Shown here: positions 3-64,000 of the stretch, piece by piece | Layout: each line of letters begins with the position of its first letter | How positions within the stretch are numbered: position 1 is the stretch's first letter | Assembly: GCA_021851715.1 (NCBI GenBank) | Contig: JAJZCR010000011.1 | Coordinates: 2,418 to 66,417 of the forward strand | Source: Planctomycetota bacterium | Lineage (GTDB): Bacteria; Planctomycetota; Phycisphaerae; WQYP01 | Length of the DNA stretch: 64,000 bases | Reading direction: 5' to 3' | Notes under the pieces: model-generated | What the model saw: the letters and a program-made list of their open reading frames with translations, nothing else | The model's database searches: none | Told to the model about the DNA's origin: nothing | Made by a program: the position numbers and the translations under genes

Positions 3-734
3 ACCTATCCCTGGCAGCCGCTGACCATGCTGCCCGCGGTAACCAAGGTGACAGAGTTAAAATCTCACACTCATCCCGACTGGGAAGAATCTCCGGCCGC
101 GGAACTCATCACTGCGGATCATCCTCCAGGCATCCCACTGCCCGAAACAACCGAAAGCCCCGCCATCCAACGTGGCATAGCAACCCACCGCCTCCTGCAA
201 TTGCTGGATTTCACCCAGCCCCTGGATGCCGCCGGAATCGGCCGGCAACTGCGAACCTTCGTCGACCGCCATCTTTTCCGGGAGGACGACGCCGCCCTGA
301 TAGATTCCGCCGCAGTGGCTTGGATATTTCAAACACCCATCGGCCAACAGATTCTCTCGATTGCCGCTACCCAGGGCCTTGCCGACGGCATTGGCGCAAA
401 GGGCATCTATCGCGAACTTCAATTCCTGTGGTCCATGGAACCCCATCTGCTCGCCACCGCCACCGAGAACTGTGCCGCAATCAGCTCGACTCCCGCCGAT
501 CGCGTGCTGGTCCGCGGCGTTATTGATCTATTGATGGCAACGCCGTCAACATTGCACATCGTCGATTATAAAACCGATACTCCCTCTCAAATACAAGCCC
601 GCATACCGATGTATACCCGCCAACTGCGTTACTACGCGCAGGCCGTCTCGACCATTCTTCGCCGCCGCGTCACCCATGCAACACTGGTATTTATCTTGGC
701 CCAAACCGTCACCCCCGTCACCCTGCCGTCATAA
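3..734 (+). CDS. addA: C-terminal RecB/AddA-type PD-(D/E)XK nuclease domain of an ATP-dependent helicase-nuclease (5' partial)
   Basis: The frame is open from the window edge (TYPWQPLTMLPA..VTELK). It has RGIATHRLLQ, YRELQF, VRGVIDLL, IVDYKTD and QLRYYA motifs typical of the AddA nuclease domain. Confidence 0.8.
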   Translation, partial: TYPWQPLTMLPAVTKVTELKSHTHPDWEESPAAELITADHPPGIPLPETTESPAIQRGIATHRLLQLLDFTQPLDAAGIGRQLRTFVDRHLFREDDAALIDSAAVAWIFQTPIGQQILSIAATQGLADGIGAKGIYRELQFLWSMEPHLLATATENCAAISSTPADRVLVRGVIDLLMATPSTLHIVDYKTDTPSQIQARIPMYTRQLRYYAQAVSTILRRRVTHATLVFILAQTVTPVTLPS

Positions 735-811
735 CCTGATGGCCGCCACCAGCACGCACCGGTCATTGCTTCACGGCGTAGCCTTGTTTACCTTTTTAAC
801 CGTTTGTCTGC

Positions 812-1648
812 TTACTTGTTATACGGTGAAGGCGCCGCCGCCCCAACTGGTGTAGCCATATCAAAGTTGATCGGCAGCAGCCCGAGTTTTTTGCGCGCCG
901 CATTGCACGCCGCCAGGACACCCGGCATCTGCCGCGCCGAAATATACCGCACCTTACCATCCGCAAAGGCAAGCGGCCCCGGCTTGACTGGCTCTTGATT
1001 ATTGACAAACAGCACAATCAACTGCGGCAACAGCGCTTTGCGGCTTGGACGATTGATATGCGTAAGTCCCGCCCCCGTGTAGCGGTAGTCACTGTTCTTT
1101 CGCACCAGCGTCGCCAATAGGGACGGCTTGAGGGTTTTGTAATCTTTCGGCAGGACCAAAGATTTCAACTCCAATGTCGGATCACTTAGCGTAGTCCCGT
1201 TGATGACGCCACTGAGCACCAACACCGACAGATCCGGCGGAAAGTCATGGTGATGGTGATTGGCCCATGCCCGGCATGCCGACAGAATTTGCTCCATCCG
1301 GGCATGCTGTTTCATTTCCAACCCTTTGTGCACGTTGATGGCGCTGACCGCAAAAAGAGATACCCCTCCCAGCATCGCCAACAGCCCCAGCCAACGCCCC
1401 ACCATCGGATGTTGATGCTCATTGATATGGTAAATCAGCGCCCCGGCACCGATACAAAGCGCCAACATCGCCAGCATCAGCACAACCACCGATGGTGGAT
1501 GGTTCGATGACGTTGGATACCGCCAAAGTATCACTCCCTCCACCAGCACACAAGTTGCGGCGATAACGGAAAGCCAGTTCACCGGCCTGCGCATGAGCGG
1601 CACACTGGTATCCGCCCGACCCTTGCTGGATGTCATCTGCTGATTCAT
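812..1648 (-). CDS. Membrane protein with about 3 N-terminal TM helices and a pseudopilin-like C-terminal domain (AFADG motif)
   Basis: Hydrophobic N-terminus, then ILSACRAWA..FPPDL and PLAFADGKV, resembling planctomycete H-X9-DG-type proteins. Confidence 0.55.
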   Translation of the reverse strand: MNQQMTSSKGRADTSVPLMRRPVNWLSVIAATCVLVEGVILWRYPTSSNHPPSVVVLMLAMLALCIGAGALIYHINEHQHPMVGRWLGLLAMLGGVSLFAVSAINVHKGLEMKQHARMEQILSACRAWANHHHHDFPPDLSVLVLSGVINGTTLSDPTLELKSLVLPKDYKTLKPSLLATLVRKNSDYRYTGAGLTHINRPSRKALLPQLIVLFVNNQEPVKPGPLAFADGKVRYISARQMPGVLAACNAARKKLGLLPINFDMATPVGAAAPSPYNK

Positions 1649-4259: not shown

Positions 4260-6028
4260 CCCCCAACGCCTGGCTGCAAATTACCCTGCTCATGGGCACC
4301 GTGCTGCTGCTGGTAAGACCGGTCGGTGCATATATGGTCCACGTATATGAAAACCAGCCGGTACCCAGATTGGGTAAAATTCTGGGTCCGGTGGAGCGCG
4401 GTATCTACCGCGTGTGCGGCATATCCGCCCACCATCAACAGAATTGGAAACGCTACACCCTGGCCCTGCTGCTGTTTAACCTGCTGGGATTTATGGCGGT
4501 GTATCTCATTCAGCGGTGGCAGGGGTGGTTGCCACTGAACCCGGCCGAAATGCCCGCGGTAGCCCCCAGTTCTCTGGCCTTTAACACCGCGGCCAGTTTT
4601 GTCACCAATACCAACTGGCAGAACTATGCCGGTGAATCCACCATGAGCTACTTCACACAAATGGCGGCGTTGACGGTGCAGAATTTTCTTTCCGCGGCCA
4701 CCGGCCTGACGGTGCTGGTGGCGCTGGTGCGCGGGCTGGCCCGCAAAACCACCACTGAACTGGGCAGTTTCTGGGTGGATTTAACACGCAGCATGTTATA
4801 CATCCTGTTGCCGCTTTCGCTGGTGCTGGCCGTGGTTTTAGTCTCTCAGGGCGTACCGCAGACCCTGGATAAATATATCACTGTGCATCTGGTGCAACCG
4901 TTTCATCAGGCCAACTCCACCACCACAGCCCCGTCCGCAGCCATCACCACCCAAACTATTGCCGTCGGTCCGGTAGCTTCACAGGAAGCTATTAAAGAAC
5001 TGGGAACCAATGGCGGAGGTTTTTTTAACGCCAACTCCGCTCATCCCTTTGAAAATCCCACGGGATTGACCAATTTCCTGGAAGAGGTGGCTATCCTGTT
5101 GTTGCCGCTGGCATTTTGCTACACCTTCGGCCGCATGGTGGGAGACACCCGGCAAGGCTGGGCCGTGCTGACCGCCATGCTGGTGCTGCTGCTGGCCCTG
5201 ATGATACCGTGCGTGATGGCCGAGCAGGCCGGCAATCCGCTGCTGGCCGGATATTGCAACCAGCGGCCAACGCAACTGCAAACGGGTGGCAATATGGTGG
5301 GCAAGGAAGCGCGTTTCGGACCGGTCAACAGCGCCATTTTTGCCGGCGTGGCCACCGGCACTTCCACCGGCGCGGTAAATTCCATGCTGGATTCGTTTAC
5401 CCCACTGGGGGGCCTGTGCCCACTGTGGCTGATACAGCTTTCCGAAGTGGCTCCCGGCGGTGTTGGTTCGGGCTTGTACGGCATGTTGATGTTTGTCCTG
5501 ATTACGGTGTTCATCGCGGGCCTCATGATTGGTCGAACGCCGGAATATCTGGGCAAAAAAATAGAAGCATTTGAAATGAAAATGGCGTCCATCGCCATTC
5601 TGGTGCCACCGTCGCTGGTGCTGGTGGGCACCGCCATTGCCTGCGTAACCGCGGCCGGCCTTGCCGGTATAGCCAATCCCGGGGCCCACGGCTTTTCCGA
5701 AATGCTCTACGCCATGACCTCCCAGGGGAACAACAACGGCTCCGCTTTTGCCGGGCTTAATGGCAATACCACGTTTTACAACGTGCTGGGAGCCTTGCTG
5801 ATGCTCGCGGCGCGGTTCTGGACGATTATTCCGACCATGGCCATCGCGGGTTCTCTGGCCCGCAAGAAGATTATTCCGGCCGGATCGGGCACCCTTGCCA
5901 CGAATTCACCACTGTTTGTGTTCATTTTGATCGCCATCATTGTGATTGTAATCGCCCTGACTTTTTTCCCGGCCCTGACCCTTGGGCCTATTGTGGAACA
6001 GCTACAGATGATGGCGGGCCATCGGTAA
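4256..6028 (+). CDS. kdpA: K+-transporting ATPase subunit A
   Basis: [37 protein letters not shown] and NNGSAFAG motifs. The start is placed at the ATG overlapping the kdpF stop. Confidence 0.97.
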
Positions 6029-50424: not shown

Positions 50425-51423
50425 TTAAATACATCCATCCCGCGATAGCTGGAAATCCGCCGGTGAATTTTTCCGTTCCCCTTCAACCAGCCCGCGTAAG
50501 GCCAGCAGGCTGAATTGCCACATCACCCATACTTCCACTCCAAAGCCGGCAAAACCAATCAGGCCCGGCACGGGCATTTGAAAATAGCGGATGTACTGCC
50601 AGGTTCCAAGAAAAGGCAGATGATAGGTCCATTTGGCGATGGCCCAGTAATTCCAAAATTCCCACAACAACCCGCACAACAGGCCGCCGAGCATCAAGGA
50701 AAAAGTGCGCCCCCATCGCCCCTGCCGCCAGTCGCCGATAATGCTGGGTCGTCCACACCAGAAGTTGATGGGATCCAGCAGAAAAATAGCGCTGACCCAG
50801 ATGGCCAGGTTGGCAATGGCACTGTGAAAAACAAACGGCCATAAAAAAAGAGCGGCCCCCAAAATGAACGTCGCAATCTGCACCGGCCGTCCAATGCGTA
50901 CCCCCCCGCTTTGCATGCGGGCCAGCCCCATGCGCATGAGAACTTCCGCGGTCAGAAATATGCCGGGGGCAATCGCTGCAAAAGCCAGCAAGTAGCCAAC
51001 TCCGCGATCCCACGGATTGGCGGGCATGCCCTGATAGTTCCACGCGTGCAGGCCCGTTGCCGGATCGCGCATAAAATAAAAGTTCAGCCAGTCAAAGTAA
51101 CACCACGCTGGAACGGACCACAGCCAGCAGACCCAAAAGCGGTTTGCAAACCGCCGCAGCCACGAATCGCCGTCGCTTCGAGCCAGCAGCCCCAGCAGCA
51201 CCATCAGGTACGCGCTCCACGCCCACGGAGTGATATGAATGCGCACCTGCGTGCCAATCCATGCGGCTGGACCGGCTGGCAGCAGACCACCGGCGGACGC
51301 AAATAAAATGACCTCCAAAAGCCCGATCAGCACCAGGCCGGCGAAAAGCAAACCGAGTCCGGGGCAGCCTGTGGGACGGCGCTTAAACCGGCCGGCAAGC
51401 AGGATAGGTGATGAATCCGTCAT
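50425..51423 (-). CDS. Conserved hypothetical integral membrane protein
   Basis: Many TM segments with W.Y, LDPIN, GLLWEFWNYWA..KW.Y and F.MP..G motifs. Confidence 0.65.
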   Translation of the reverse strand: MTDSSPILLAGRFKRRPTGCPGLGLLFAGLVLIGLLEVILFASAGGLLPAGPAAWIGTQVRIHITPWAWSAYLMVLLGLLARSDGDSWLRRFANRFWVCWLWSVPAWCYFDWLNFYFMRDPATGLHAWNYQGMPANPWDRGVGYLLAFAAIAPGIFLTAEVLMRMGLARMQSGGVRIGRPVQIATFILGAALFLWPFVFHSAIANLAIWVSAIFLLDPINFWCGRPSIIGDWRQGRWGRTFSLMLGGLLCGLLWEFWNYWAIAKWTYHLPFLGTWQYIRYFQMPVPGLIGFAGFGVEVWVMWQFSLLALRGLVEGERKNSPADFQLSRDGCI

Positions 51424-51521
51424 ACTGGGGATTATACGCGCCGGATCGTGATTCCGGCAGTTGCTCATCGCGTGACTGCGATATTGGCCGGGGCTCCCGG
51501 CCGCATCTGTTCCACCGGGCG

Positions 51522-52286
51522 CTATGTCGCTTGTTTTCTTCCCGCGTCTGCCGGATCGTGGATGTATTTGTAAATATGGACGCCCTCCATGGTAATCATG
51601 CCTTCCTGCACCATGTTGTCCAGTGTGGGCAGAAAATTTTTAATTTTTTCCCGGGAATCAACTATTTCAATGACGATCGGCAAATCCGTGGACAGCACCA
51701 GCACCTTGTTAGTGTGCAGCACGCTGTTGGCTCCAAAGCCCATGGAGCCTTTCAGCACGGTTCCGCCTGCGATCCCGGCAGCCCGGGCCTTGTGAATAAT
51801 AGCCTCAAAAAGCGGTTTATGGTCCCATTCATCCGCTTCGCCGATGAATATGCGCAGCAGAACACCATCGTGATCAATTCGCATCAGGGCATCTCCAGTT
51901 AAATCCGCAATAGTGCTAAGAGGTTCCACGGTGGGCGGCAGTTGGCTCTGGTGAGTCGAGCCTCTTTTTCGATACATCATCACCGCGGCGCGCTCCAGCG
52001 TGACCATCCCGATTGGCATTGGTTTGGCGATTGCAGTTTGGATAAACTCGACGATTCGCCCCGCGTCATCAACCATCTCCACGATTACCGGCGAAGCGCT
52101 GGTAAGATGATAATCTGACGACGTAAGCAGCCCGCGCTGGCTAAAGCCCATGATGCCGCGCAGCACGGTGGCACCGGCGATTTTATGCCGGCTGGCCGCC
52201 TGCACCAGGCGCTCGTAAGTCGGGCTGAAATGGTACAGGTCATTGCTGCGAAAATACGCCCGAAACAGTATCTTTTCACCAACCAC
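51522..52286 (-). CDS. Tandem DUF190 (PII-like, CrcB-associated) protein
   Basis: Two repeats: GATVLRGIMGF..PVIVEMVD..GMVTLE and GGTVLKGSMGFG..LPIVIEIVD..GMITME. GTG start with a GAGGA RBS directly after crcB. Confidence 0.88.
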   Translation of the reverse strand: MVGEKILFRAYFRSNDLYHFSPTYERLVQAASRHKIAGATVLRGIMGFSQRGLLTSSDYHLTSASPVIVEMVDDAGRIVEFIQTAIAKPMPIGMVTLERAAVMMYRKRGSTHQSQLPPTVEPLSTIADLTGDALMRIDHDGVLLRIFIGEADEWDHKPLFEAIIHKARAAGIAGGTVLKGSMGFGANSVLHTNKVLVLSTDLPIVIEIVDSREKIKNFLPTLDNMVQEGMITMEGVHIYKYIHDPADAGRKQAT

Positions 52287-52302: not shown

Positions 52303-52686
52303 TTAGCCATTCATGCGATGTCCCAAAATAACGCCGGCCCGCACCGCCAACAACCCCAACAGCAAACTGCCCAGAAGATAAAACATCGCCCGCAAGCCGG
52401 CACCATCCGAGAGCATGCTGTTGGATTCAAACATATACGTGGAAAATGTGGTATAGGCACCGGTAAAGCCAACAGCGATGGCGAGTCGAAAATCCTGGGA
52501 TATGGGCAACCGGTTACCGGCCACGGTGGCAAACCAGCCGAGAAACAGGCTGCCGCTGAGGTTAATGAGCATGGTTCCCACCGGAAATGGCGAACCGGTG
52601 AACAGGCGGGCGACGAAAAACCGAGCCATGGATCCAAACAGACCGCCCACGCCAACCGCCATATATTCGAATAAAACTTTTTTCAA
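52303..52686 (-). CDS. crcB: Fluoride channel Fluc/CrcB
   Basis: GGLFGSMARF, FPVGTMLINLSGS and GFTGAYTTFSTY motifs. A TTG start with a GGAG RBS gives 127 aa. Confidence 0.95.
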   Translation of the reverse strand: MKKVLFEYMAVGVGGLFGSMARFFVARLFTGSPFPVGTMLINLSGSLFLGWFATVAGNRLPISQDFRLAIAVGFTGAYTTFSTYMFESNSMLSDGAGLRAMFYLLGSLLLGLLAVRAGVILGHRMNG

Positions 52687-52781
52687 GACGCCGCTCCAGA
52701 GTTGGCCCACGAAACACAAAAACCCCGGCTGATAATTCATCCGCCGGGGTTGGTTGTCAAAACACTCCGGCAGCGTTACCC

Positions 52782-52845
52782 GCCAGGAGTCATCAGCCTC
52801 CACGGTCATAGGCCGGGGGCGGTTCAGGTGAACTCCATCACCTTC
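52782..52845 (-). ncRNA. Fluoride riboswitch 1 (crcB motif), leading crcB-DUF190
   Basis: The minus strand reads GGTGATGGAGTTCACC-TGAACCGCC...GGCTGATGACTCCTG. P1 is GGTGA/TCACC and the pseudoknot is GGAGT/ACTCC. A terminator-like hairpin and TGTTTT follow. Confidence 0.95.
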
Positions 52846-52859
52846 GATGCGATAAGCAA

Positions 52860-52889
52860 AGTCTAATGGAAGGACGATGAAGTTGTCAA
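52860..52889 (-). promoter_or_regulatory. Sigma70-like promoter TTGACA-N18-TAGACT driving riboswitch 1 and crcB
   Basis: On the minus strand, TTGACA is at 52889-52884 and TAGACT at 52865-52860, just upstream of the aptamer. Confidence 0.7.
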
Positions 52890-52942
52890 ACCAACCCTGC
52901 GGTGGCATCTTACCAGTTCAGCAGCGGGCCATCATCCGCAAA

Positions 52943-52984
52943 AAACACACTTGACTTTTAGCCGTCTATGTGTAAAGTGTGTTT
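52943..52984 (+). promoter_or_regulatory. Promoter (TTGACT-N16-TAAAGT) bracketed by a perfect 10-bp inverted repeat
   Basis: AAACACACTT (52943-52952) and AAGTGTGTTT (52975-52984) overlap the -35 and -10 upstream of the AAA gene. Confidence 0.6.
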
Positions 52985-52987
52985 ACT

Positions 52988-54121
52988 ATGATCGCCCGAC
53001 CACTATGGAATCAAAGGCTCTTCGCCGGCTGGCAAAAGGCGTCCATCATCTGGCTGACCGGACCGCGCCGGGTCGGCAAAACCGTGCTGGCGCAAAGTCT
53101 GTCCGGTGCGGAATTCCTGAACTGCGATCTGCCCGCCGTGGCCGAGCGTCTACGCGATCCGGAAATGTTTTATCGGACTTCCCAGTGCGATCTGGTAATC
53201 TTCGACGAGGTACATCAACTGCCGGATCCGAGCCGGTTGCTCAAAATCGGTGCCGACGAATTTCCCAAACTGAAAATTCTGGCTACCGGCTCGTCAACCC
53301 TGGCGGCTACGCGCAAGTTTCGCGACTCCCTGACTGGTCGCAAACGCGTGGTCAATCTGGTGCCGGTGCTTTATGAGGAGCTGTCAGCTTTTGGCGTGGT
53401 GGACGTGCGAAAGCGTCTGTTATACGGCGGATTGCCGGCCGCCTTGCTGGCGGCGGATTACGATGCCGGTTTCTACGCCGAATGGATGGATTCCTATTTT
53501 GCACGCGATGTTCAGGAACTTTTCCACTTGGAAAAGCGCTGGGCATTCCTGCGCGTGCTGGAACTTTTATTCCGCCAGAGCGGCGGGCTGCTGGATGTAA
53601 GCAAACTCGCCGCGGAAGCTCAGGTCAGCCGGCCCACGGTTGCCAATTGGCTAGATATCTACCAGACCACGCACGCGATCCATCTCATCCGGCCATTTTC
53701 CGCCGGCGGACGGCGCGAAATTATCGCCCAGCCCAAAATTTTCGGCTTCGACACCGGAATGGTATGCCATGCCCGTGGTTGGGACTCGCTGCGGCCGGAG
53801 GATTGCGGCTTGCTTTGGGAGCATCTGGTACTCGACACGTTGCTCGCCGCGGGTCTGCCGAAGATACATTTCTGGCGGGATAAAGCGGGGCGTGAGGTGG
53901 ATTTTATCATTCCACGCGGACGCGGGGCCGTCGACGCCATTGAATGCAAAATGAACCCCGCGGCCTTCGAGGTTCGCGGGCTCGAAGCGCTACGCCGTGT
54001 GTATCCCAGTGGCGATAACTACGTCGTGTGTCCGTTGGCCGGATCCGGTTATCAGCGAGTCCAGGATGGATACAAACTGACATTTCTATCCCCGACGGAA
54101 CTGCGGCCTGTGCTGGAATAA
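52988..54121 (+). CDS. AAA_14 ATPase with a DUF4143 (HTH plus PD-(D/E)XK-like) domain
   Basis: GPRRVGKT, VIFDEVH, ATGSS, SLTGR, YGGLP, HTH VSRPTVANWL and EVDFII..AIECK. Confidence 0.88.
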   Translation: MIARPLWNQRLFAGWQKASIIWLTGPRRVGKTVLAQSLSGAEFLNCDLPAVAERLRDPEMFYRTSQCDLVIFDEVHQLPDPSRLLKIGADEFPKLKILATGSSTLAATRKFRDSLTGRKRVVNLVPVLYEELSAFGVVDVRKRLLYGGLPAALLAADYDAGFYAEWMDSYFARDVQELFHLEKRWAFLRVLELLFRQSGGLLDVSKLAAEAQVSRPTVANWLDIYQTTHAIHLIRPFSAGGRREIIAQPKIFGFDTGMVCHARGWDSLRPEDCGLLWEHLVLDTLLAAGLPKIHFWRDKAGREVDFIIPRGRGAVDAIECKMNPAAFEVRGLEALRRVYPSGDNYVVCPLAGSGYQRVQDGYKLTFLSPTELRPVLE

Positions 54122-54308
54122 AGCAGGCACTGGCTGCCTTCTTGAATGTTATGGAAGCAACCGGGCACGATATTGACGAGATCATTAACGAGCCGGTCGC
54201 CGGATTTCGGGTGCTCCATTTTTACAAGCTCAATCGCTTTGTGAATCATTATTTACAGGCCAAAGAGCGGGAAGCTAGCGCTCGCCAGGAAATGGAGCAT
54301 TGGATTGT

Positions 54309-55820
54309 TCATCCGTGAGCCGGGTCAAAAATCTGGTGATACAGGTCGTTGGCGAAGCTGGTGGCCAGCGGCTCGCCGGGGTGCATTTCGAAAGTTCGAG
54401 TGCCGTCATCTTGGCGCTTGGCCCGCAAGAACAGGGCGGTATCGTGGTAGTGTTGTTGCGCGGCGTGGGCGAATTGGTACAAATGGGTTACAAACCAGAC
54501 CCGCACGCCGGCTTCCAGCAGCGCCTGGATAACCTGGTCGGCTATTTGGGAACCCTCAATTTCATTGGTAGCCGAAAATGACTCATTGAGCAGAAGGATG
54601 GCCGCCGGAGTCAGGCCGTCGACGATATCACTTAATCGAGAGAGTTCTTCATCAAACTTCCCGCGCTTCATGGTGCGGTCTTCCTGGCGTTTGTAATGGG
54701 TGAAAATAGCCGGGGCCACATCGGCCTCAAAGTGCGAGGCCGGCACAAACAGGCCGGCTTGCATCATCACCTGCGCCGCCCCCATGGCTCGTAAAAAGGT
54801 GGATTTGCCGCCCTGATTAGCGCCGGTAATAACGATCATGTTTTTATTATTCGCATTGATGCTGTTGGGCCGGACCTCGCTGCCGATCCGCAGTGCCAGG
54901 CCCGCGTCGCGCAGGTCGGTGCATTGGCAACGGCCGGTTCCGGCCGGTGTGGGAATTGGAAAGCACAGCGGCACGCCGCGGTCGGACAGCGCCCGGTGCA
55001 AATTCACACAGCCCCGGTAAAACGCCAACTCGGTGCGCAAGATTGTAAGAAAGCTCATCATGTGATCGGCGGATTGGGCCAGGGCATTGGCGGCCGTATT
55101 GAGTCCGCGGTTGGTCAATTCGGAAAGGGCTTGATGGCCCGCTTCATCCCGCGGATCCAGGCGAAACGCATAGCGGGCCGGACCACGGGTAAAAAGGCGC
55201 TGAAAAAAATTGCCGGGCTGGTTATTCGTGCGGCGCAGAGTGTAGTTGTGGCCTTCATTACGGGCACCAAGCTGAGCACTGATCACTGTGCCATCGTGAA
55301 ATTTCAGTTGTCCAAGGTCATGGCGCACCTGGTTGAAATAATCCGGGGTTAACTCATGGTTGATGCGTGTGAAGAGGGCTTGGAATCCGTCCGATTCGAA
55401 TTGGGGCTGATGCGCCCGCACCAGTTGCTTGAGTTCGGCAAAAATATCCAGCAGCATATTGAGCAGGTCCACAGCCTCGTACAAAATGCCGGAAGGGGAC
55501 CGGCTGAAAAGGCCCAACCATTGGCGCTGCCGGCGCTCGCCGGCCTCGAGGGCCAGCTTGGCCAATCGCTCGATCAGCGGCACGTTTGTCAGGCAGTCGC
55601 GCAGCACGGCCTGCCGATAAAGAACCGTATCGACATCATTTTGAACGCCGCCGGCAAACACGCGTTGGACCACCGTGGCTATCAGTTCATCCTGGCCGGC
55701 CATGGCGGCGGCCACCGTTGGCAGTTCCAGGTCGGCGAATAGTGTTGGCATGCGAATTGCCGAAGAGGGATGCGTGTCGAAAACAAAATCGCGATTGGGG
55801 TGCAGCAGATAGACCTTCAT
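54309..55820 (-). CDS. MutS-related ATPase B (domain V only, MutS4-like)
   Basis: YRQAVLRD, ITGANQGGKSTFLR, MMQAGLFVPA, IFTH, LLLNESFSATN and FVTH; no mismatch-binding domain. Confidence 0.88.
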   Translation of the reverse strand: MKVYLLHPNRDFVFDTHPSSAIRMPTLFADLELPTVAAAMAGQDELIATVVQRVFAGGVQNDVDTVLYRQAVLRDCLTNVPLIERLAKLALEAGERRQRQWLGLFSRSPSGILYEAVDLLNMLLDIFAELKQLVRAHQPQFESDGFQALFTRINHELTPDYFNQVRHDLGQLKFHDGTVISAQLGARNEGHNYTLRRTNNQPGNFFQRLFTRGPARYAFRLDPRDEAGHQALSELTNRGLNTAANALAQSADHMMSFLTILRTELAFYRGCVNLHRALSDRGVPLCFPIPTPAGTGRCQCTDLRDAGLALRIGSEVRPNSINANNKNMIVITGANQGGKSTFLRAMGAAQVMMQAGLFVPASHFEADVAPAIFTHYKRQEDRTMKRGKFDEELSRLSDIVDGLTPAAILLLNESFSATNEIEGSQIADQVIQALLEAGVRVWFVTHLYQFAHAAQQHYHDTALFLRAKRQDDGTRTFEMHPGEPLATSFANDLYHQIFDPAHG

Positions 55821-57373
55821 GGCGTGAGCCTCCGCTTGATTTGCGCATAGGTGAGATGATGTTGCTGCGCGACGGCCAGCGCATACGCGTTGCCGTCGGC
55901 GGGGTGCCTTTCCAGGCGGAACGTGCGCTGGGTCGGGTCAGCCGGGGCAACTCCGGCGACCACGCTGACGGTGTGGTCGTTGAGACGCGAAAGCTCATCA
56001 AGGAAGGTCACGCAGACGCAAAGCGTCTGAAGTTCCGCGAGTTTTGCAATCATTCGTGTGGCCAGGTATAGCCCGTCCCGGGCGCTGGTGGAGGAAAATA
56101 TCTCGTTGAGGATCACCATGCTGTGCCCGGTGGCATGGCGGACAATATCGCGCAGACGCAGCAGATCATCCTGCAGCTTGCCGCGAAGATCCGCAAAATT
56201 TTCCGGCCGCTCAAAATGGGTGAAAATTCCGTCGACTAAACCAAGCTTGGCTTCCACGGCTGGAACGGTGCAGCCCAGGCTGGCCAGGTAATGCAGTTGG
56301 CCGAGCATCCGGGCGAAGGTGGTTTTGCCGCCCTGATTGGGTCCGGAAACCACGATAATTCGCTCTGGATCATTGAGCGTGAGATCATTGCAAACCGGTG
56401 CCGCACCGGAAGGCAGCAAGTGGGTCGCCAGGGCCAGGTCGAAGCCTTCGCGCACCGCCAGCGATTTGGCATTTACCAGAATTTGCGGATAACAGAACCT
56501 CAGACCAGTTTGCGCCACGCGGCCGGTGAATTCGACCCAAGCCATGAAAAACTGAATTTCACGTTCACATTGCACCACGATGTCGGCGGGAAAATCAGGG
56601 TACTTGGCGCAAAAGGTCTCCAAGTCGGCGAACAGATCGGGGTGCAGCCGGGCCACGAGAGCCAGAATTCGCACCTCCACGTGGTTCATGGAGTCGCCCG
56701 GGGCCAGGGCTGCCGTGTAGTCGCGGACGGTGCCCTGCTGAAACCGGGCGAAGGTGTGCTGGACTTCCTGGCCGAAGTCCGCTTCACCGGCATAGCGGCT
56801 CACGGTAACCAGGTCCTCCTGAATACGTATGCAGTAGATAATGGCCCGTAGACGTGATTGAATATTTTCCGCCATTGCGGTCAGGGTTTGAAAGTTCTCT
56901 GATTGCACGTACTCTCCGAGCCGGGTACGAAAATCCCGCAGCCCCCGGGACTCAAGCGGCATGGGTCCAAGAGCATGGTGCAAGGCGGCGACGGCCCGGC
57001 TGTAAACCGTCGCGGCCTCAAGAATATAGCCGTGCTTGTGGATCGCGAAATGGATGGTTTCGGCTGTGGCAAGATGCCGCCGCATCCTGGCCATCTGACC
57101 GGAAAAGGCCCGAAACGCCGCCAGCGTGGGGCCCGCCTGGACATCGCGCATGATTTCCTGACGGTAAGCGATTTCCTCGGCGGTTTTCAGAGGTTGATAA
57201 AATAGCTCGGCAAGATGATATTCATCCCGTCCGGCCAGAGCGGCCGCCACAATTTCATCGAGATGCAGGTCGGCAAAGAACGGCGGCTCCGCGGGCGAAG
57301 GCGCTGCGGCGGCCGCGAAAAAGGTCGCCGGAAAAAGTATGGAATCACCGGATCTGGGCTGGACCGAGTGCAT
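55817..57373 (-). CDS. MutS-related ATPase A (domain V only, MutS4-like)
   Basis: FFADLHLD, YRQEIMRD, VSGPNQGGKTTFAR, LGCTVPA, IFTHF and VILNEIFSST; ATGA overlap with the partner gene. Confidence 0.88.
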   Translation of the reverse strand: MHSVQPRSGDSILFPATFFAAAAAPSPAEPPFFADLHLDEIVAAALAGRDEYHLAELFYQPLKTAEEIAYRQEIMRDVQAGPTLAAFRAFSGQMARMRRHLATAETIHFAIHKHGYILEAATVYSRAVAALHHALGPMPLESRGLRDFRTRLGEYVQSENFQTLTAMAENIQSRLRAIIYCIRIQEDLVTVSRYAGEADFGQEVQHTFARFQQGTVRDYTAALAPGDSMNHVEVRILALVARLHPDLFADLETFCAKYPDFPADIVVQCEREIQFFMAWVEFTGRVAQTGLRFCYPQILVNAKSLAVREGFDLALATHLLPSGAAPVCNDLTLNDPERIIVVSGPNQGGKTTFARMLGQLHYLASLGCTVPAVEAKLGLVDGIFTHFERPENFADLRGKLQDDLLRLRDIVRHATGHSMVILNEIFSSTSARDGLYLATRMIAKLAELQTLCVCVTFLDELSRLNDHTVSVVAGVAPADPTQRTFRLERHPADGNAYALAVAQQHHLTYAQIKRRLTP

Positions 57374-57401
57374 GGCTCACCACCGATTCAATCAACTTTT
57401 C

Positions 57402-57462
57402 GGTAGGAGTCATTAGTGCGGCGTTAATCGTGCCGCACGGTTTCGGCGAACTCCATCGCCCA
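57402..57462 (-). ncRNA. Fluoride riboswitch 2, leading the MutS-like pair
   Basis: The minus strand reads GGCGATGGAGTTCGCC-GAAACC-GTGCGGC(ACGATTAAC)GCCGCAC-TAATGACTCCTACC. It ends about 30 nt before the ATG at 57373. Confidence 0.95.
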
Positions 57463-57480
57463 CCAACACGTATGCAACTG

Positions 57481-57510
57481 ATTGTACGGGGACGCCCCCG
57501 GCAGTGTCAA
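57481..57510 (-). promoter_or_regulatory. Sigma70-like promoter TTGACA-N18-TACAAT driving riboswitch 2
   Basis: On the minus strand, TTGACA is at 57510-57505 and TACAAT at 57486-57481. Confidence 0.75.
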
Positions 57511-57754
57511 GATTCCCAACCCCTGGATTTTACGCGTTTTGCAGCAATCGTTGGCAGCGAACCGTCTTCCAGAGAGCGCCTGGCGGCCAAGGTGGCCCCC
57601 CACCAGTGCCGACCGGCTACGCAGTGCGGGCGGGGACGCCGGCGCTGCCGGGAATCTCCTTCAATATGGGGATTGGGCACGCATTGCGGGGCAGTTGCCA
57701 CAATTTATGGCCACACCCGTTGCCCTCATGCACGGCGCGCTGTAAATGGGCGTG

Positions 57755-57783: not shown

Positions 57784-57796
57784 ACAGTAGAGGGAT

Positions 57797-57850
57797 TAAG
57801 GCGATGGAGTTCGCCGGAACCGCTCCGCACCGGGGCTGATGACTCCTGCC
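57797..57850 (+). ncRNA. Fluoride riboswitch 3, leading the metallophosphoesterase
   Basis: GGCGATGGAGTTCGCC-GGAACC-GCTCCG(CAC)CGGGGC-TGATGACTCCTGCC. Confidence 0.95.
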
Positions 57851-57974
57851 ACGTGCGAATGGGCCGATTGGCGGGTATCAGGAAACGGGCCGCGTTTTCC
57901 CCGCATTTTAATTTTGGCCGATAATTTGGCTCAAAGAGGCCAGGGCACGCGGACTTTTTGCAGGAGCGATGCCG

Positions 57975-58688
57975 ATGCGTGTGCTGTTGATTTCTGATCT
58001 TCATGGCAATCCGTGGGCTTTAAGAGCCGTCGCCGCCGACTGCGGCACGTTTGACTACGTGCTGTGCGGCGGAGATGTGGTAAATTACGGGCCGGATCCC
58101 GGAGCGTGCATCACCTGGTTGCGGGGCCACAATGCGATAACCGTGTGCGGCAACCATGATTACGCCGTGGCCCATAACCAGCATCCCCATGCCAATCCGG
58201 CCAAGGCCCAACTGGCGCTGGCCATGCGCGATTGGACGTTGGGGCAGCTAAGCATTGAGGATATCCACTGGTTAAAGCGCCTGCCGCTGCGCCTGACGTG
58301 GGATTGTGGCGGCACTACGTTTGACGTGGTTCACGCGTCGCGGATGGATCCACTCTACGATTACCGTTTGACGCCCGACCTTTCCATCAACAAACTGACG
58401 GAGTATCTGGGCAATGGTCCCCTGGCGGATGTACTGATGGTGGGCCACACACATTTGCCTTACGTACGTCCCTATATCAACAGACAGCTCGTGAATCCCG
58501 GCTCCGTGGGACAACCGCTGGATGGTGATCCCAGGGCGTCTTATGCGGTGTGGAAGGATGGCACGATTTCCCTGCGGCGCGTTGAATATCCGGTGCAAGA
58601 TGTCGTCGCCGCGTTGGATAAAATAAAGGCTCCCCTCGTACGCAAAGCGGACTTGAAACGCGTTTTGGAAACAGGCAAACTCTTTTAA
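57975..58688 (+). CDS. Calcineurin-like metallophosphoesterase (Metallophos_2 / YfcE-like)
   Basis: DLHGN, GDVVNYGP, GNHD, VH, GHTH and NPGSVGQPLDGDPRASY motifs; GCAGGAG RBS 8 nt before the ATG at 57975. Confidence 0.92.
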   Translation: MRVLLISDLHGNPWALRAVAADCGTFDYVLCGGDVVNYGPDPGACITWLRGHNAITVCGNHDYAVAHNQHPHANPAKAQLALAMRDWTLGQLSIEDIHWLKRLPLRLTWDCGGTTFDVVHASRMDPLYDYRLTPDLSINKLTEYLGNGPLADVLMVGHTHLPYVRPYINRQLVNPGSVGQPLDGDPRASYAVWKDGTISLRRVEYPVQDVVAALDKIKAPLVRKADLKRVLETGKLF

Positions 58689-60709
58689 TCCAAGTCGGGG
58701 TGCCGATCAGCGGCGGCACTGAGTTGGGCCAGGGCCTGTTCCAAAACGGCAATGTCCGCAAGGATATTACCGTCGCAATGACCACGGCAAGCCGTGGCTG
58801 CCGCACGGAGTACCGCCGCGGCAGCATGATAGTGGATGCTTAAGTCGCCCAGCATGCCGCCACGCCAGTGCCAAAGCCTTTTATTATAATCCAGAAGCAC
58901 CGCCCCAAGACGCGATTGAACCGATTTTCGGAACTGCTCGGCCAGAACATGCCGTCGCATGACCACACTTATTTTCGTCCATGTCGGCACATGCGGCCGT
59001 GCGGCAGCGGCGATTGATGCGGGATCAAAAATGGGTAATCCCGCAATCGGAGGAAGCTCTCCGGGGGAAGGGCAAGCCAGCAGATCGGCGGCCTTCCTGA
59101 GCGACCGTTCCACCTGGTCACGGACGTCGGTTAGCTGCCGGATGATATCCCCGGCGGTCTGGGTGACACGGGCCCGGGCGATGGCGGAGATCTCTTGGGA
59201 TGCCTTTTCCACATCCCACGAGCCTTGCGCAAGGGTTTGCGCCGTTCGATCAATGATGTCATCCGCTAACCGCCGCGGAGTGGGTAGACTTGCGGCGCTG
59301 ACGCGCCCGGCGGCGTCCAGAACCATGGTGCCGTGCGCCAGCAAGACGGCAACATTGCCGTCGTCATCGTTCCGCGTTGTCGCATCCGCCGCTTGAGCTC
59401 GCCGTTTGAGAATATCAGTCACAGTGCCACCAAGCTGCTTAAGTTTATGCTGGATGGAAGCAGCACGAAGCGCAGCAGCCCGCCCAAGCAGCGGGGCTAA
59501 AGACTGGTCAAACCAGTCCCATGTCATTGGTGCCTGCGGCGCACGCACACTCACGGCATGAATCTCAGGAGGGTTATCTAAATGATGACGGAGCTGGTCC
59601 TGGGCGTATGTCAGCACGGAGGCAAGATCATGTTCCGGGAGCAGATCCGCTTTGGTCAAGAGCACCATAATTTCCCCTCCGGCCCGCCGCAAGGCCGCAA
59701 CCAATTCAATATCCATATCGGTAAGTCCGACCGCGGCGCTGGCCAGCACCAGGCCGATATCGCAACGGGGCAGGTAGGCCAATGCGTCAGCCGATCCTTG
59801 TCCACCCAATGCTCCAAGTCCGGGCGTATCCACAAAAGCTATCCCCCGCACCATACGAGTACAGGGCAATTCGATACCGACTTCCGTTACATGTTTACAA
59901 TTGTCCGGATTGCCGATTTGGGTGACGAAATCTTCAATTTGAGTCGGCTGAATAACCATACTTTTATCCGATCCAGTTTTGACCGTAACTTTCAGGACGG
60001 GGCCATAAATAAGCCGCGTGGGAATCGTGGTAACGGGCACCGCGCCCACGGGCAGGATGTCATGCTGCCAGAGAAAATTAAGAAGCGATGATTTGCCGGC
60101 ACTGACCCGGCCAAAAACGGCAATTTCAAGCTCGGTGTGCTCCATACGCTCCACAAGCACGGCCAGCGCCGGGCGAATTTCCACCAAGTTCCGGCGCGTT
60201 ATGATTTCAGCCAGTTGGGCGGCCAGAGCGGCGGTCTGGTCGGGATTACCCAGGCGGTGCAGCCGCGCTGAAATATTGCCGCCAGGTGGTTCCGCCAAGC
60301 TTTTGCCCAGTTGATCGATGATATTGAGAAGTTCGGCGGATATGGTTTGCAGATCCTCCCGGGCCGATTCATCGACGGGTCCATAACCGACCATGTACTG
60401 CGGGCGTATCTCCTCAAGCGTATTGCTCACCGCCAGAAGCGTGCTGCGGAAAGCCCAGAGCGCACTGATTTGCGGCTCGGGGATGGTCAGACCATGGGCG
60501 CGAATAATTCTGGCCATGGCTCGCCGCAACTCCTTAAGATACACGGCAATGAGGTACTCCTGATCGGGCGTGAAATCATATTTCAAGGTCTGAAATAGAG
60601 AATCTTTTTGGCTCTGCCGGGCGGCCGCAAATGTCCGACTCAGAGTTTCATCCACGTGCTGAAATGTTAAAAGCAGGTGTCGCCGATGATTTTCATTAAG
60701 GCCCGGCAT
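58685..60709 (-). CDS. Bacterial dynamin-like GTPase with an N-terminal helical extension
   Basis: G1 GRVSAGKSS, G2 PVTT, G3 DTPG and G4 TKAD, with a helical C-terminus; GGAG RBS and a 23-nt gap after eno. Confidence 0.85.
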   Translation of the reverse strand: MPGLNENHRRHLLLTFQHVDETLSRTFAAARQSQKDSLFQTLKYDFTPDQEYLIAVYLKELRRAMARIIRAHGLTIPEPQISALWAFRSTLLAVSNTLEEIRPQYMVGYGPVDESAREDLQTISAELLNIIDQLGKSLAEPPGGNISARLHRLGNPDQTAALAAQLAEIITRRNLVEIRPALAVLVERMEHTELEIAVFGRVSAGKSSLLNFLWQHDILPVGAVPVTTIPTRLIYGPVLKVTVKTGSDKSMVIQPTQIEDFVTQIGNPDNCKHVTEVGIELPCTRMVRGIAFVDTPGLGALGGQGSADALAYLPRCDIGLVLASAAVGLTDMDIELVAALRRAGGEIMVLLTKADLLPEHDLASVLTYAQDQLRHHLDNPPEIHAVSVRAPQAPMTWDWFDQSLAPLLGRAAALRAASIQHKLKQLGGTVTDILKRRAQAADATTRNDDDGNVAVLLAHGTMVLDAAGRVSAASLPTPRRLADDIIDRTAQTLAQGSWDVEKASQEISAIARARVTQTAGDIIRQLTDVRDQVERSLRKAADLLACPSPGELPPIAGLPIFDPASIAAAARPHVPTWTKISVVMRRHVLAEQFRKSVQSRLGAVLLDYNKRLWHWRGGMLGDLSIHYHAAAAVLRAAATACRGHCDGNILADIAVLEQALAQLSAAADRHPDLD

Positions 60710-60732: not shown

Positions 60733-62004
60733 TTACACGGCCAGCGGATTGCGAAACTCGGCGGCAGAGCCAAGCTCGGCCTCAATTTCCAACAGGCGGT
60801 TGTATTTGGCGATGCGCTCAGACCGGCAGGCGGAGCCGGTCTTAATCTGGCCGCCGCCCATGGCAACAGCAAAGTCAGCAAGGAAGGCATCTTCCGTTTC
60901 GCCGGAGCGATGAGAGATGATCCACTTCCAGCCGGCCTGTTTACACATTCGCACCGCCTCAATGGTTTCGGTTACGGTGCCGATTTGATTGAGTTTGATC
61001 AGTACCGCATTGGTGCTGTGCTCGCGAATACCGCGGGCGATAAAGCGCGTGTTGGTAACGTAAATATCATCGCCGACGATTTGGACGCGGTGGCCGAGAG
61101 CGGCGGTTTGAGCCTTGAAGCCGTCCCAGTCATTTTCATCCAAGCCATCCTCCAGAGACACGATCGGGTATTGATCGAGCCAGGCGGCGTAGAGCTGACA
61201 CATTTCGTCGCTGGTTTTGACACCCTCGCCGGACTTATCCAGATGATATTTATTCTCACGGTAAAATGAGCTGGCGGCAGGATCAAGGGCCAGCGCAATT
61301 TGTCGGCCCGGTTGATAACCTGCGGCGGTAATAGCCTGCATGATCAGGTCGGGGGCTTCGCGGTTGTGTTTTAAATTCGGGGCAAAGCCACCCTCATCGC
61401 CCACCGCAGTGGAGTAACCGCGGGCGTGCAGGATGGACTTAAGGGCATGAAATGTTTCCACACCCCAGCGCAGGGCCTCGGCGAACGAGGGAGCGCCCAC
61501 GGGCATGATCATAAATTCCTGGAAATCCAGTGAATTGTCCGCGTGCTTTCCGCCATTGAGGATATTCATCATCGGCACCGGCAGGCGTACCGCCTCCATA
61601 CCTCCCAGATACTGGTACAGGGGTACGCGGCGCGCCATGGCCGCCACGCGCGCCACCGCCATGGAAGTGCCCAGGATGGCGTTGGCTCCCAGGCGACTTT
61701 TATTAGGTGTGTCATCGGCTTCAATAAGTACCCGATCCACCTCTTCCTGGCGGGTGACATCCATGCCTGCCAGACGTGCAGCGATGGTAGTGTTCACCGC
61801 AGCCACAGCTTTCAATACGCCCTTGCCACCGTAGCGATTTTTGTCGTGATCGCGAAGCTCCACCGCTTCATGTTCACCGGTGGAGGCACCAGACGGTACG
61901 GTGGCGCTGGCCTTTGTACCGTCGTGGAGGCAGACGGTGACTTTTAACGTGGGCGTGCCGCGGGAATCAAGTATTTCCAGCGCGCCAACGGATGCGATGT
62001 CCAT
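60733..62004 (-). CDS. eno: Enolase (phosphopyruvate hydratase)
   Basis: [44 protein letters not shown] and [12 protein letters not shown] are all intact. Confidence 0.98.
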
Positions 62005-62014
62005 GAGAAGCCTT

Positions 62015-64000
62015 TCACAATAAACGGTTCAGCACCAGGACAATAATCAGCAACAGCAGCACCCAGGCGGCGTAGGCGTTGACCACGGCGGGGCGATGGA
62101 TGCGGGCGATCAGGCTGGAGAGGAATTTTACCACGGCCACCAGCGGGCGCAGAAATAGCCGATCCACAATATAGGTATCGCGCGGCGGCTTGCGGATGGC
62201 GGTGCGGAAATGGCCTGCCACGGCGACCTGGGAGTCTTCGCGCTGGGCGGGGCCGAAGATGGAACGAAAAATAATCCGCACCGGATTGGAAAATCCGGTG
62301 GCACTGTAGGACATTTCCGGCCAGAGCCGGCGCAGGCCGCCCGCCCACGGTTCGCTTATACGTACTCTGCGCCGGCGCGTACCCAGCCGCACCAGCAGAA
62401 AAGTCAGGAACATAATGCCAGCCAGCGTTACCGCCAGGTAAAAAGTGGACATGGCGTAGACCACGGGATTACTGGCGGTGCCTTGATGCAGCACCACCAG
62501 GCCGCGCGCCGGAATCAGCGTTTTTCCCACGTCCGCGCCGATTTTGGCAAAACCGGTGAGAAAGGCCTGGTGAAATTGGGCGTTGCCGTGGCGGAGCGTG
62601 AAAAACGGGGGGACCAGGGCGTTGGTAGCGCGGTGATGCGTCAGCGGAGCCATGGCTCGATCCACCAGCGGTATAACCCAGGTGGCACCCACTCCTAAAG
62701 CCAGGCAGATGCCGGCAAGCATGCCCATGGCCCAACGCATGGAAGGGGGACTCTCGCGTGCCTGTTGGGCAGAGTCGCTGCGGGGCTGGCCGAGAAAGCT
62801 CATGGCGAACGCTTTCACAAAGCAGGTGATGGCCAGGGCCGCGGTTAGCGCCAACACCGCGCCGCAAAGCGCGAAAATCACACGTGCCAGCGGCGAGGTC
62901 AGGTCGGTGGAGCGCAAAATAGTTTGCAGCGTCAGCCATTCGCTGACAAAGCCATTGAGCGGCGGCAGCGCCGAGATGGCCAGAGTGCCGATCAAAAAAA
63001 GCAGGGCCGTCATGGGCATGCGTTTGAGCAGCCCGCCAAGGCGATTGATGTCGCGTGTGCCGGTGCCGTAATCAATGGCCCCGGCTCCGAGGAACAACAG
63101 GGTTTTGTACGCAGAGTGGTTGATCATATGGTAAATGGCCACCACCCAGGCAATGGCCGCGATGGTGGGCATGTGATAAGCGCCGAACACCATTCCGGCA
63201 CCCACATCCACCGCTACGATGCCGAGATTTTCGATGGAGCTATGCGCGAGCATGCGCTTGAGATCGTTATCAATGGTCGCGTAAAGAATGCCCAGCAGGG
63301 CCGAGATGCCGCCGATGGCCAGAACAATAAGGCCCGGCCCGGCGGTTACGGCCGGCATGACGATGGCGTCAAACCGGATGATGCCATAGATGCCGAAATT
63401 CAGCAGACTCCCCGATAAAATCGCCGAGATGTTCGCCGGTGCCACCGGGTGGGCACGCGGCAGCCAGGAGCTAACCGGAACCAGGCCGGCCTTGACGGAA
63501 AAGCCCCCGAGAATAAGCAGAAAAATGATCCATCGCCAGGTGGCGGGCAGGTGCGTCATGGCGCGGTGCAAGGCGGGAAAGCCGATGTGGCCACCGGCCC
63601 AGGCGGTCATCAGCAGCAGACCCACGCCAGCGAGGATAATGCCCGCTTCGTTCATGGCCAGGAAAAGGTAGGCGGCCCGGCGATGGTCTTCATGGCGATG
63701 TTCCAGGGTAATGGGAAAACTGGCCAGAGCCGACATTATCCGCCATGAGAACAGAAAGGTAATGACGTCGCCGGCGGCGAGCACCAGGGCGCAGGCGGCC
63801 AATAACAGATGAAAAAAAATGCCAAATCCACGGATGTTGTAATGCTCCGGATAGCGGTTCATGTAGCTGGCGGAAAACAGATACGCCGGCAAAAAGGAGA
63901 TGCCCAGTGCCAATACAAATATCGCGGATACCAAGTCCAGTCGCAGCCGCAGCAAACCCAGCAGCGGCAAATGCCACAGATGAACGGCCATGGGCCGGTG
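62015..64000 (-). CDS. HyfB/HycC-like proton-conducting membrane subunit (hydrogenase-4 / formate hydrogenlyase-type); likely 5' partial
   Basis: [62 protein letters not shown] and [10 protein letters not shown] motifs. The frame stays open to the window edge. Confidence 0.88.

Follow-up and report, generated by a model that had tools for sequence, protein, structure and literature searches.

Why should a pair of MutS-like ATPases be placed behind a fluoride riboswitch? The question is raised by a 64,000-nucleotide stretch of DNA from a Planctomycetota bacterium (assembly GCA_021851715.1, contig JAJZCR010000011.1, positions 2,418 to 66,417 of the forward strand; hereafter the window), in which two adjacent genes with MutS-type ATPase domains, mutS4A and mutS4B, follow such an RNA directly. 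Fluoride riboswitches mark genes that are needed when fluoride builds up, and most of these are explained: they encode exporters, spare copies of fluoride-sensitive enzymes or functions in ion homeostasis. A MutS-like pair has been on the list of riboswitch-associated genes since 2010 and still lacks an explanation, and the literatures on MutS4 and on fluoride seem not to meet. The answer matters beyond this locus. Identifying the client of the pair would reveal a form of fluoride damage beyond enolase and pyrophosphatase, with relevance to how organisms tolerate fluoride in organofluorine bioremediation and in habitats that are acidic and rich in the ion. We are all but certain that the two genes are MutS4A and MutS4B under fluoride control; what they do under that control can be proposed with graded confidence.

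A coupled MutS4A/MutS4B pair behind a fluoride riboswitch

All elements that a first-pass annotation of this sequence had described lie where it had placed them. It had reported two paralogues of about 500 amino acids behind a fluoride riboswitch, and the reverse strand indeed holds mutS4A (55817..57373, 518 aa) followed by mutS4B (54309..55820, 503 aa), which share one architecture of a MutS core/lever region, a mini-clamp and domain V. The two genes meet in an ATGA (55817..55820, reverse strand) in which the TGA of mutS4A overlaps the ATG of mutS4B, and a GGAGG lies 10 nt 5′ of the mutS4B start. Both proteins would be co-produced through translational coupling at this overlap.

The fluoride riboswitch aptamer (RF01734; 57397..57469, reverse strand) scores 49 bits against an Rfam gathering threshold of 34 (E 1.5e-10, model positions 1-64) and ends 24 nt before the mutS4A ATG. 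Further 5′, at 57481..57510 on the same strand, a TTGACA and a TACAAT spaced by 18 nt resemble a sigma-70 promoter at 11 of 12 consensus positions; this consensus match is the best of 10 sites in the region, against a mean of 4.3 in shuffled sequences. When the leader was folded, both the minimum free energy and the centroid structure paired ACUCCUACCG of the aptamer 3′ strand with CGGUGGUGAG of the Shine-Dalgarno region, in a predicted alternative hairpin (57371..57413, reverse strand) that takes in the aptamer 3′ strand, the Shine-Dalgarno region and the start codon. This is the predicted layout of a translational ON switch, in which the aptamer 3′ strand would mask the ribosome-binding site as long as fluoride is lacking, and expression of the pair would be raised only upon fluoride accumulation. 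The whole genome has four fluoride riboswitches in 3.87 Mb.

Related loci were gathered from genomes (19) and from metagenomes (80, the best of 510, picked by similarity and including near-duplicates), which makes 99. The genome loci span Desulfobacterales, Anaerolineae, Spirochaetota, Synergistetes, Thermotogaceae, Actinobacteria, Proteobacteria and two Thermoplasmata archaea. A precedes B in all 18 genome loci that have downstream DNA. An (A/G)TGA overlap with B in frame was found in 74 of the 91 loci in which it could be assessed, the other 8 having too little DNA; 11 further loci have a B that starts later in the tblastn alignment, and 6 show no B N-terminus. In three loci (L007, L015 and L022) MutS4B is split across two reading frames, either through frameshift errors in metagenome-assembled genomes or because these copies are decaying. 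Fused A-B proteins were also considered as Rosetta-stone evidence. Two of the 150 proteins listed (P0123 and P0133) are such fusions, both ordered from A to B; they were given little weight, since at an ATGA overlap a single-base error is enough to create a fusion, and part of A is missing from P0123.

At the Rfam gathering threshold, a riboswitch lies directly upstream of A on the same strand in 8 of 18 genome loci and in 26 of 72 assessable metagenome loci. This total of 34 in 90 answers the check suggested by the first-pass annotation, namely how often homologous pairs carry an upstream RF01734; one genome locus without upstream DNA and eight metagenome loci with less than 300 nt upstream and no match could not be assessed. 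Nine more metagenome loci have a same-strand riboswitch 507-1742 nt upstream, and two more genome and three more metagenome loci have one elsewhere in the locus. The riboswitch linkage of MutS4 across phyla is 38-53%. The most frequent specific neighbour is enolase (3 of 19 genome and 12 of 80 metagenome loci), and the order enolase-MutS4A-MutS4B on one strand occurs in L010, L057, L062, L064, L072, L087 and L096. A crcB or DUF190 gene is present in 3 of 19 genome and 9 of 80 metagenome loci, and a pyrophosphatase gene in L013 and L018. At least one of these markers (riboswitch, crcB, DUF190, enolase or pyrophosphatase) was found in 14 of 19 genome and 48 of 80 metagenome loci, 62 of 99 in total.

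Both proteins belong to the MutS superfamily by their ATPase region. Pfam recognises MutS_V alone in A (E 2.5e-21) and in B (E 1.2e-20), and the same scan returned no MutS_I, MutS_II or Smr domain, in agreement with the earlier statement that no mismatch-recognition or Smr domain is recognisable. The AlphaFold models of A and B have mean predicted local distance difference test (pLDDT) scores of 88.2 and 90.3 and predicted template modelling (pTM) scores of 0.86 and 0.89, respectively. In Foldseek searches, almost the full length of each model aligned to the cores of MutS, MSH2, MSH3 and MutS2 (E 1e-19 to 1e-16 over 470-570 columns). Because of these full-length alignments, we read the 330 N-terminal residues as a MutS core/lever with a clamp remnant of one hairpin, which the models place at residues 180-193 in A and 179-196 in B.

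Both proteins score far below the cut-offs of the characterised families: 94.3 (A) and 70.2 (B) bits against 480 for the MutS1 model NF003810, 64 and 62.9 bits against 400 for the MutS2 model TIGR01069, and 55.6 and 78.7 bits against 300 for NF052383. The last of these models describes KamC, a lysine 5,6-aminomutase reactivase ATPase, and is the best NCBIfam match of B. KamC resembles MutS4 in its length (about 500-580 aa) and its MutS domain V, but has DE, LSGF and ATH where MutS4 has its own motifs. We rejected KamC as the family of the pair: a true KamC (L107, 308.8 bits, from the genome of L016) has these three motifs and branches with MutS1 and MutS2. A literature search on KamC returned only unrelated papers.

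A tree was built by a quick method with midpoint rooting from 43 sequences (19 A, 15 B, 5 MutS1, 3 MutS2 and the one KamC, which sits on a long branch). It recovered an A clade and a B clade, each with a support of 100 in the Shimodaira-Hasegawa-like approximate likelihood ratio test (SH-aLRT), and separated A and B together from the rest with a support of 95. On this sequence evidence, MutS4A and MutS4B are sister clades apart from MutS1, MutS2 and KamC, which is the outcome that the phylogeny proposed by the first-pass annotation was to decide. The archaeal L021 and L022 nest within the A clade and L021 within the B clade, and the internal branching of the A and B parts is broadly congruent. 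The family is large: of the 8000 candidates that were scored for A, 7974 matched, and B yielded 755 clusters at 50% identity (E <=1e-30). Its spread is patchy: a homologue turned up in 4 of 40 relatives, with 41-49% identity, and in none of the 4 genomes of the same genus. The GC content is flat (0.54-0.61 over 40-64 kb), which gives no compositional sign of recent transfer.

Lin, Nei and Ma defined MutS4A and MutS4B in 2007 as neighbouring genes, the stop codon of A overlapping the start codon of B, reported them from a few distant bacteria and from Thermoplasma and Ferroplasma, and did not study their function (PMC2190696). Like the present pair, theirs are adjacent, overlapping paralogues in which only the C-terminal MutS ATPase region is recognisable. 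Adjacency, stop/start overlap, the lone ATPase region and the two-clade tree all match that description, which upholds the earlier assignment to a MutS4A/B-like pair; the assignment rests on this match, as the tree held no MutS4 sequence named in the literature. The link to the riboswitch is likewise on record, since crcB-motif RNAs were reported consistently in the 5′ UTRs of genes that include mutS, termed DNA repair (Weinberg et al. 2010, PMC2864571). In the accessible text of that report the mutS genes are not stated to be a MutS4 pair without domain I. Neither the MutS4 family nor the association of the riboswitch with mutS is therefore new, the latter having been known since 2010.

Kim et al. 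described MutS4A/B of M. yongonense in an acquired island together with enolase and NADH-dehydrogenase-like genes (2017, PMC5742357). Both this study and that of Lin et al. infer horizontal transfer and presume a role in DNA metabolism, and the accessible text of neither mentions fluoride or a riboswitch, nor does it describe the active-site signature and dimer model set out below (PMC2190696, PMC5742357). Conversely, a 2024 review of fluoride resistance, in the text accessible, does not mention MutS (PMC11139923). Our literature search found no paper with both "fluoride riboswitch" and "mismatch repair" and no functional study linking MutS with fluoride, the supplementary tables of Weinberg 2010, Lin 2007 and Kim 2017 being outside its reach.

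The first-pass annotation had also placed the pair in fluoride stress rather than mismatch repair, and here the link to fluoride proved strong. Besides the riboswitches directly upstream in 34 of 90 loci, the canonical repair genes are elsewhere in the genome: a canonical MutS is encoded on contig C87 and a MutL domain on contig C115, both apart from the mutS4 pair. The remark that no mutL is nearby holds for the 10 open reading frames (ORFs) scanned with Pfam between 50.4 and 64 kb.

Active-site signature and the modelled heterodimer

What sets the pair apart from other MutS proteins is its ATPase site. The translations bear out the motifs listed in the first-pass annotation, namely GPNQGGKTT, VILNEIFSST and VTFLDEL in A, and GANQGGKST, LLLNESFSAT and FVTH in B. 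In HMMER alignments with solved MutS, MSH3 and MutS2, the NE of both proteins falls opposite the Walker B DE, GK opposite the signature S-T, and VTF (A, without the switch His) or VTH (B, with the switch His) opposite the switch-His motif. Among the genome loci, all 19 A and all 15 B sequences have NE, Lys occupies the signature position in 18 A (as GK in 15) and in 14 B (as GK), and the switch residue is Phe in every A and His in every B. Larger alignments agree: in 50 A rows the P-loop, N423, E424 and F457 never vary and K399 hardly does, and in 58 B rows the same holds for N412, E413 and H446, with K388 nearly invariant. In MutS1, MutS2 and KamC of the same genomes, these positions read DE, S-T or S-G, and His; the window genome's own MutS1 reads DE, STF and ATH, a set of motifs that MutS4 lacks. 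Because motifs, gene order and overlap recur in independent loci of many phyla, they reflect more than chance.

The first-pass annotation had called the two sites non-canonical and asymmetric, with one of them degenerate, and this stands in part. The asymmetry lies in the switch His, which family-wide is absent from A and present in B, the sequence pattern of an asymmetric ABC-type heterodimer. NE, on the other hand, is neither asymmetric nor degenerate: as it is invariant in both A and B while MutS1, MutS2 and KamC have DE, it is a family hallmark of both subunits and not a decayed site.

An experimental counterpart is the D693N variant of E. coli MutS (PDB 3k0s; Lebbink et al. 2010, PMC2857095), which carries the identical Walker B Asp-to-Asn change. 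Its metal pocket is empty in the crystal, it binds Mg2+ more weakly, its ATP affinity in the presence of Mg2+ shifts from 0.034 to 0.505 µM, i.e. becomes weaker, and mismatch release requires 0.42 instead of 0.019 mM ATP. The variant still makes clamps, and its ATPase runs at the wild-type rate in 10 mM Mg2+ and far faster at higher Mg2+ (PMC2857095). Whereas D693N is engineered into a full-length mismatch sensor and is only partly functional in repair, the change is natural and invariant in MutS4, which adds a trans Lys at the signature position and has no mismatch domain.

When A and B were modelled as a complex, three runs gave an interface score (ipSAE) of 0.64, whereas the best of three controls scored 0.00. 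In calibration, 58 of 80 solved complexes and 2 of 110 mismatched pairs attained this value. The runs had at least 92% of contacts in common, and the partner pLDDT was at least 80. The confident contacts are confined to residues 100-243 of A and 1-260 of B and are tightest between A178-184 and B178-183. In the model, the clamp hairpins of A and B appear to form one intermolecular β-sheet that joins the lever tips. Contacts between the ATPase heads are not among the confident ones, which is no evidence either way. Conserved residues at the lever tip (E197, D199, H231 and E233 of A; R224 and D225 of B) had suggested a metal or ligand site, a candidate that was dropped because the A:B model puts these very segments in the interface.

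An obligate heterodimer had been postulated in the first-pass annotation. The A:B pairing finds support, in silico through the complex score and in the genomes through the conserved translational coupling. On balance we favour a heterodimeric, asymmetric clamp as the probable form of MutS4A/B. What emerges is a testable picture: a conserved two-gene cassette, a heterodimer that pairs a consensus with a non-consensus ATP site, a natural counterpart of the Mg2+-weakening D693N change and a tip joint that is predicted to be constitutive.

Candidate functions in fluoride stress

The MutS family offers a parallel to such a heterodimer. MSH4-MSH5 is a eukaryotic MutS-family heterodimer without domain I that acts as a clamp on recombination intermediates. 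Unlike MutS4, it still has the connector and a complete clamp domain, and its Walker B is the canonical DE; no specific phylogenetic affinity to it was seen, MutS4 branching outside MutS1 in a tree that held no MSH4 or MSH5 sequence. To our knowledge, every characterised MutS-fold clamp functions on nucleic acid.

Our proposal, offered tentatively and with slightly less than even confidence, is that MutS4A/B forms a heterodimeric clamp, gated by ATP and weak in its binding of Mg2+, whose substrate in fluoride stress is nucleic acid. A and B would assemble 1:1, each with the MutS core/lever and ATPase fold and lacking the mismatch-binding, connector and Smr domains. Because the model links the lever tips through an intermolecular β-sheet, we propose a closed clamp or ring, whose ATPase heads would open and close with nucleotide. 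The composite ATP site based on B keeps the switch His and is likely the hydrolytic one, while the site based on A, with a perfect P-loop, the catalytic Glu and Phe in place of His, is likely to bind ATP, turn it over slowly and serve regulation. By analogy with D693N, the Asn for the Walker B Asp, together with the trans Lys, would weaken Mg2+ binding in both sites and leave ATPase and clamp function intact. Such a switch would depend on free Mg2+, itself perturbed by fluoride. The most speculative step concerns the client, which would probably be nucleic acid; DNA intermediates of recombination or repair, in parallel to MSH4-MSH5, would be the likeliest kind.

We lean towards a nucleic-acid client because of the characterised MutS-fold clamps, the lever-tip region of B, which is basic on average (+3.7), the parallel to MSH4-MSH5 and a weak result of Kim et al. 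In that work, M. smegmatis with the MutS4 operon gave 55 colonies against 22, with 27 of 36 against 5 of 16 confirmed as recombinants (PMC5742357). Taken by itself, a nucleic-acid client is nevertheless doubtful.

A number of observations weigh against the clamp proposal as a whole. The effect reported by Kim et al. is small, comes from one laboratory and was obtained with no fluoride (PMC5742357). No experiment links any MutS4 to fluoride tolerance, or firmly to DNA. Both proteins are acidic overall (means of -8.8 and -6.1), A has no basic tip (-0.9), and the clamp has shrunk to a single hairpin per subunit. The complex score is a measure of model confidence that solved MutS dimers could have inflated. 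As to fluoride control, the leader fold has a z-score of -1.76, with 6 of 200 shuffles folding equally well, and no riboswitch was found in the available DNA of 8 of 18 genome and 34 of 72 assessable metagenome loci. Moreover, since the loci were chosen by similarity with near-duplicates included, their counts are not independent and are descriptive. Finally, no other DNA-repair gene adjoins the pair in the loci examined, where the recurrent neighbours are exporters and fluoride-sensitive enzymes.

The acidic proteins, the minimal clamp and the enzyme and transporter neighbours therefore bring other readings into play. In one, which we consider unlikely, the A:B ring is a reactivase or remodeller that uses ATP to remove inhibitory Mg-F-phosphate complexes from fluoride-poisoned enzymes; its most likely client would be the co-encoded enolase, with pyrophosphatase or P-loop NTPases as alternatives. 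Enolase is the commonest specific neighbour and stands directly upstream on the same strand in seven loci, the enolase in the window is a second copy, and the M. yongonense MutS4 island has an enolase as well (PMC5742357). Pyrophosphatase adjoins the pair in two loci, both subunits are acidic, and KamC, by the name of its NCBIfam model only, is a precedent for a client other than DNA. However, enolase, pyrophosphatase and crcB are common fluoride-regulon genes, so that their adjacency may reflect no more than a shared regulon (PMC11139923); most loci have no enolase in the available DNA, and KamC, which lacks NE, GK and VTF, is related at the level of domain V only. Stalled translation offers another client, with the A:B clamp freeing ribosomes or translational GTPases held by GDP-MgFx, much as MutS2/RqcU acts on collided ribosomes. 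MutS2/RqcU shares with MutS4 the absence of domain I and the combination of core/lever and ATPase (fold matches 7vuf, 9kce and 7qv3), MutS2-disome structures occur among the fold matches of B (7qv3, rank 9) and its sequence matches (7qv3, 8qpp), and a dynamin-family GTPase is found repeatedly near MutS4, as in L056, where a fluoride riboswitch of its own directly precedes it. MutS2 differs, though, in having KOW and Smr domains, in being a homodimer with canonical DE, ST and His, and in forming a clade of its own (support 100) that excludes MutS4. Its matches are no better than those to MutS1 or MSH proteins, and no ribosomal or translation-factor neighbours were seen in the loci examined, which leaves this reading improbable. 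Drawn together, these ideas describe an A:B ring that has left nucleic-acid work and rescues fluoride-poisoned phosphoryl-transfer machines (the second enolase, pyrophosphatase, stalled GTPases) by means of ATP, in which case the pocket of Asn and trans Lys may serve to evade or to exploit Mg-F chemistry. We hold this general form to be distinctly unlikely; if true, the fluoride response would have a protein-repair arm, the first of its kind, and the MutS fold a new task.

The same pocket could instead bind nucleotide-Mg-F species directly and make the pair a protein-level sensor or sink of fluoride or Mg2+, either because fluoride locks the clamp in an ATP-like state that acts as a signal or because it is sequestered. 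Both NE and the Lys in place of the signature Ser/Thr occur throughout the family, MutS1, MutS2 and KamC of the same genomes having neither, and the ATPase of D693N MutS depends strongly on Mg2+ concentration (PMC2857095). This reading derives solely from the chemistry of the residues, the locus encodes neither an output domain nor a conserved partner, a protein could not plausibly sequester millimolar fluoride one for one, and the riboswitch already senses the ion; we judge it highly improbable. Least credible of all is the absence of any role in fluoride stress, with the pair being an ordinary or relict DNA-repair paralogue, or the passenger of a mobile island, that lies near fluoride genes by chance. 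The patchy spread, the horizontal transfer inferred in both earlier MutS4 studies (PMC2190696, PMC5742357) and the lack of a riboswitch in the available DNA of about half of the loci would fit this reading. They are set against the riboswitches directly upstream in loci of many phyla, in a genome that has only four of them, and against the strong conservation of motifs and coupling in proteins without mismatch-binding and MutL-binding domains. In addition, MutS1 and MutS2 coexist with MutS4 in the other MutS4 genomes examined, and MutS1 is present in the genome of the window.

The surrounding fluoride island

The mutS4 operon sits in a fluoride-response island together with crcB-DUF190, a riboswitch-led phosphoesterase and a second enolase. 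Divergently from the mutS4 riboswitch, a second one (57791..57855, forward strand; Rfam score of 55.1 bits) precedes a gene for a YfcE-like metallophosphoesterase (57969..58688, forward strand; Pfam Metallophos_2, E 4.7e-20). Homologues of this enzyme adjoin MutS4 pairs in L028 (58% identity), L043, L055 and L098, and divergent, back-to-back riboswitch pairs also occur in L019, L028, L084 and L087. A third riboswitch (52777..52851, reverse strand; 44.9 bits) leads crcB, which is contained in the ORF at 52303..52908 on the same strand (TIGR00494, 83.6 bits against a cut-off of 80.45). Because this ORF overlaps the riboswitch and its CrcB domain takes up only residues 83-193, the real crcB start is downstream of the riboswitch. 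On the 3′ side of crcB follows a tandem DUF190 protein of 254 aa (51522..52286, reverse strand; Pfam DUF190 in two stretches, E 2.7e-58), and just 3′ of it a 347-aa ORF (50425-51468, reverse strand) for which no Pfam family was found at E <=0.01. Between the crcB and mutS4 operons, on the opposite strand, lies the gene of an AAA_14/DUF4143 ATPase (52979-54121, forward strand) that has no NCBIfam match; a relative stands beside MutS4 in L102.

On the other side of the pair, Pfam identifies three genes on the reverse strand: an Mrp/NuoL-like antiporter subunit (62015-63991), the second enolase (60733-62004) and, downstream of it, a dynamin-family GTPase of 674 aa (58685-60709). The two enolases of the genome score 435 and 408.6 bits, the higher-scoring one being encoded on contig C30. 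The GTPase of this family that follows its own riboswitch in L056 lies at 4515-5429, right after the MutS4 pair, and weaker relatives are found near MutS4 in L038, L080, L005 and L051; the dynamin-family GTPase may be an unrecognised member of the fluoride regulon. The fourth riboswitch of the genome is located on another contig (C138; locus L002, 1501-1569, reverse strand), before a NuoH/HycD-like membrane subunit (Pfam NADHdh; 363-1367, reverse strand), which fits the formate-hydrogenlyase or Mrp-like class of fluoride-regulated genes.

As to where the organism lives, 81-100% of the sampled words of positions 54200-57600 were present in four sequencing runs of one study (X1-X4) labelled mine drainage metagenome, two of which may have supplied the sequence itself, and a fifth run from wastewater (X5) shares 0.05 of the same stretch; there was no RNA run among the runs found to contain it. 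As acidic water favours the entry of HF, the mine drainage label fits a large fluoride island.

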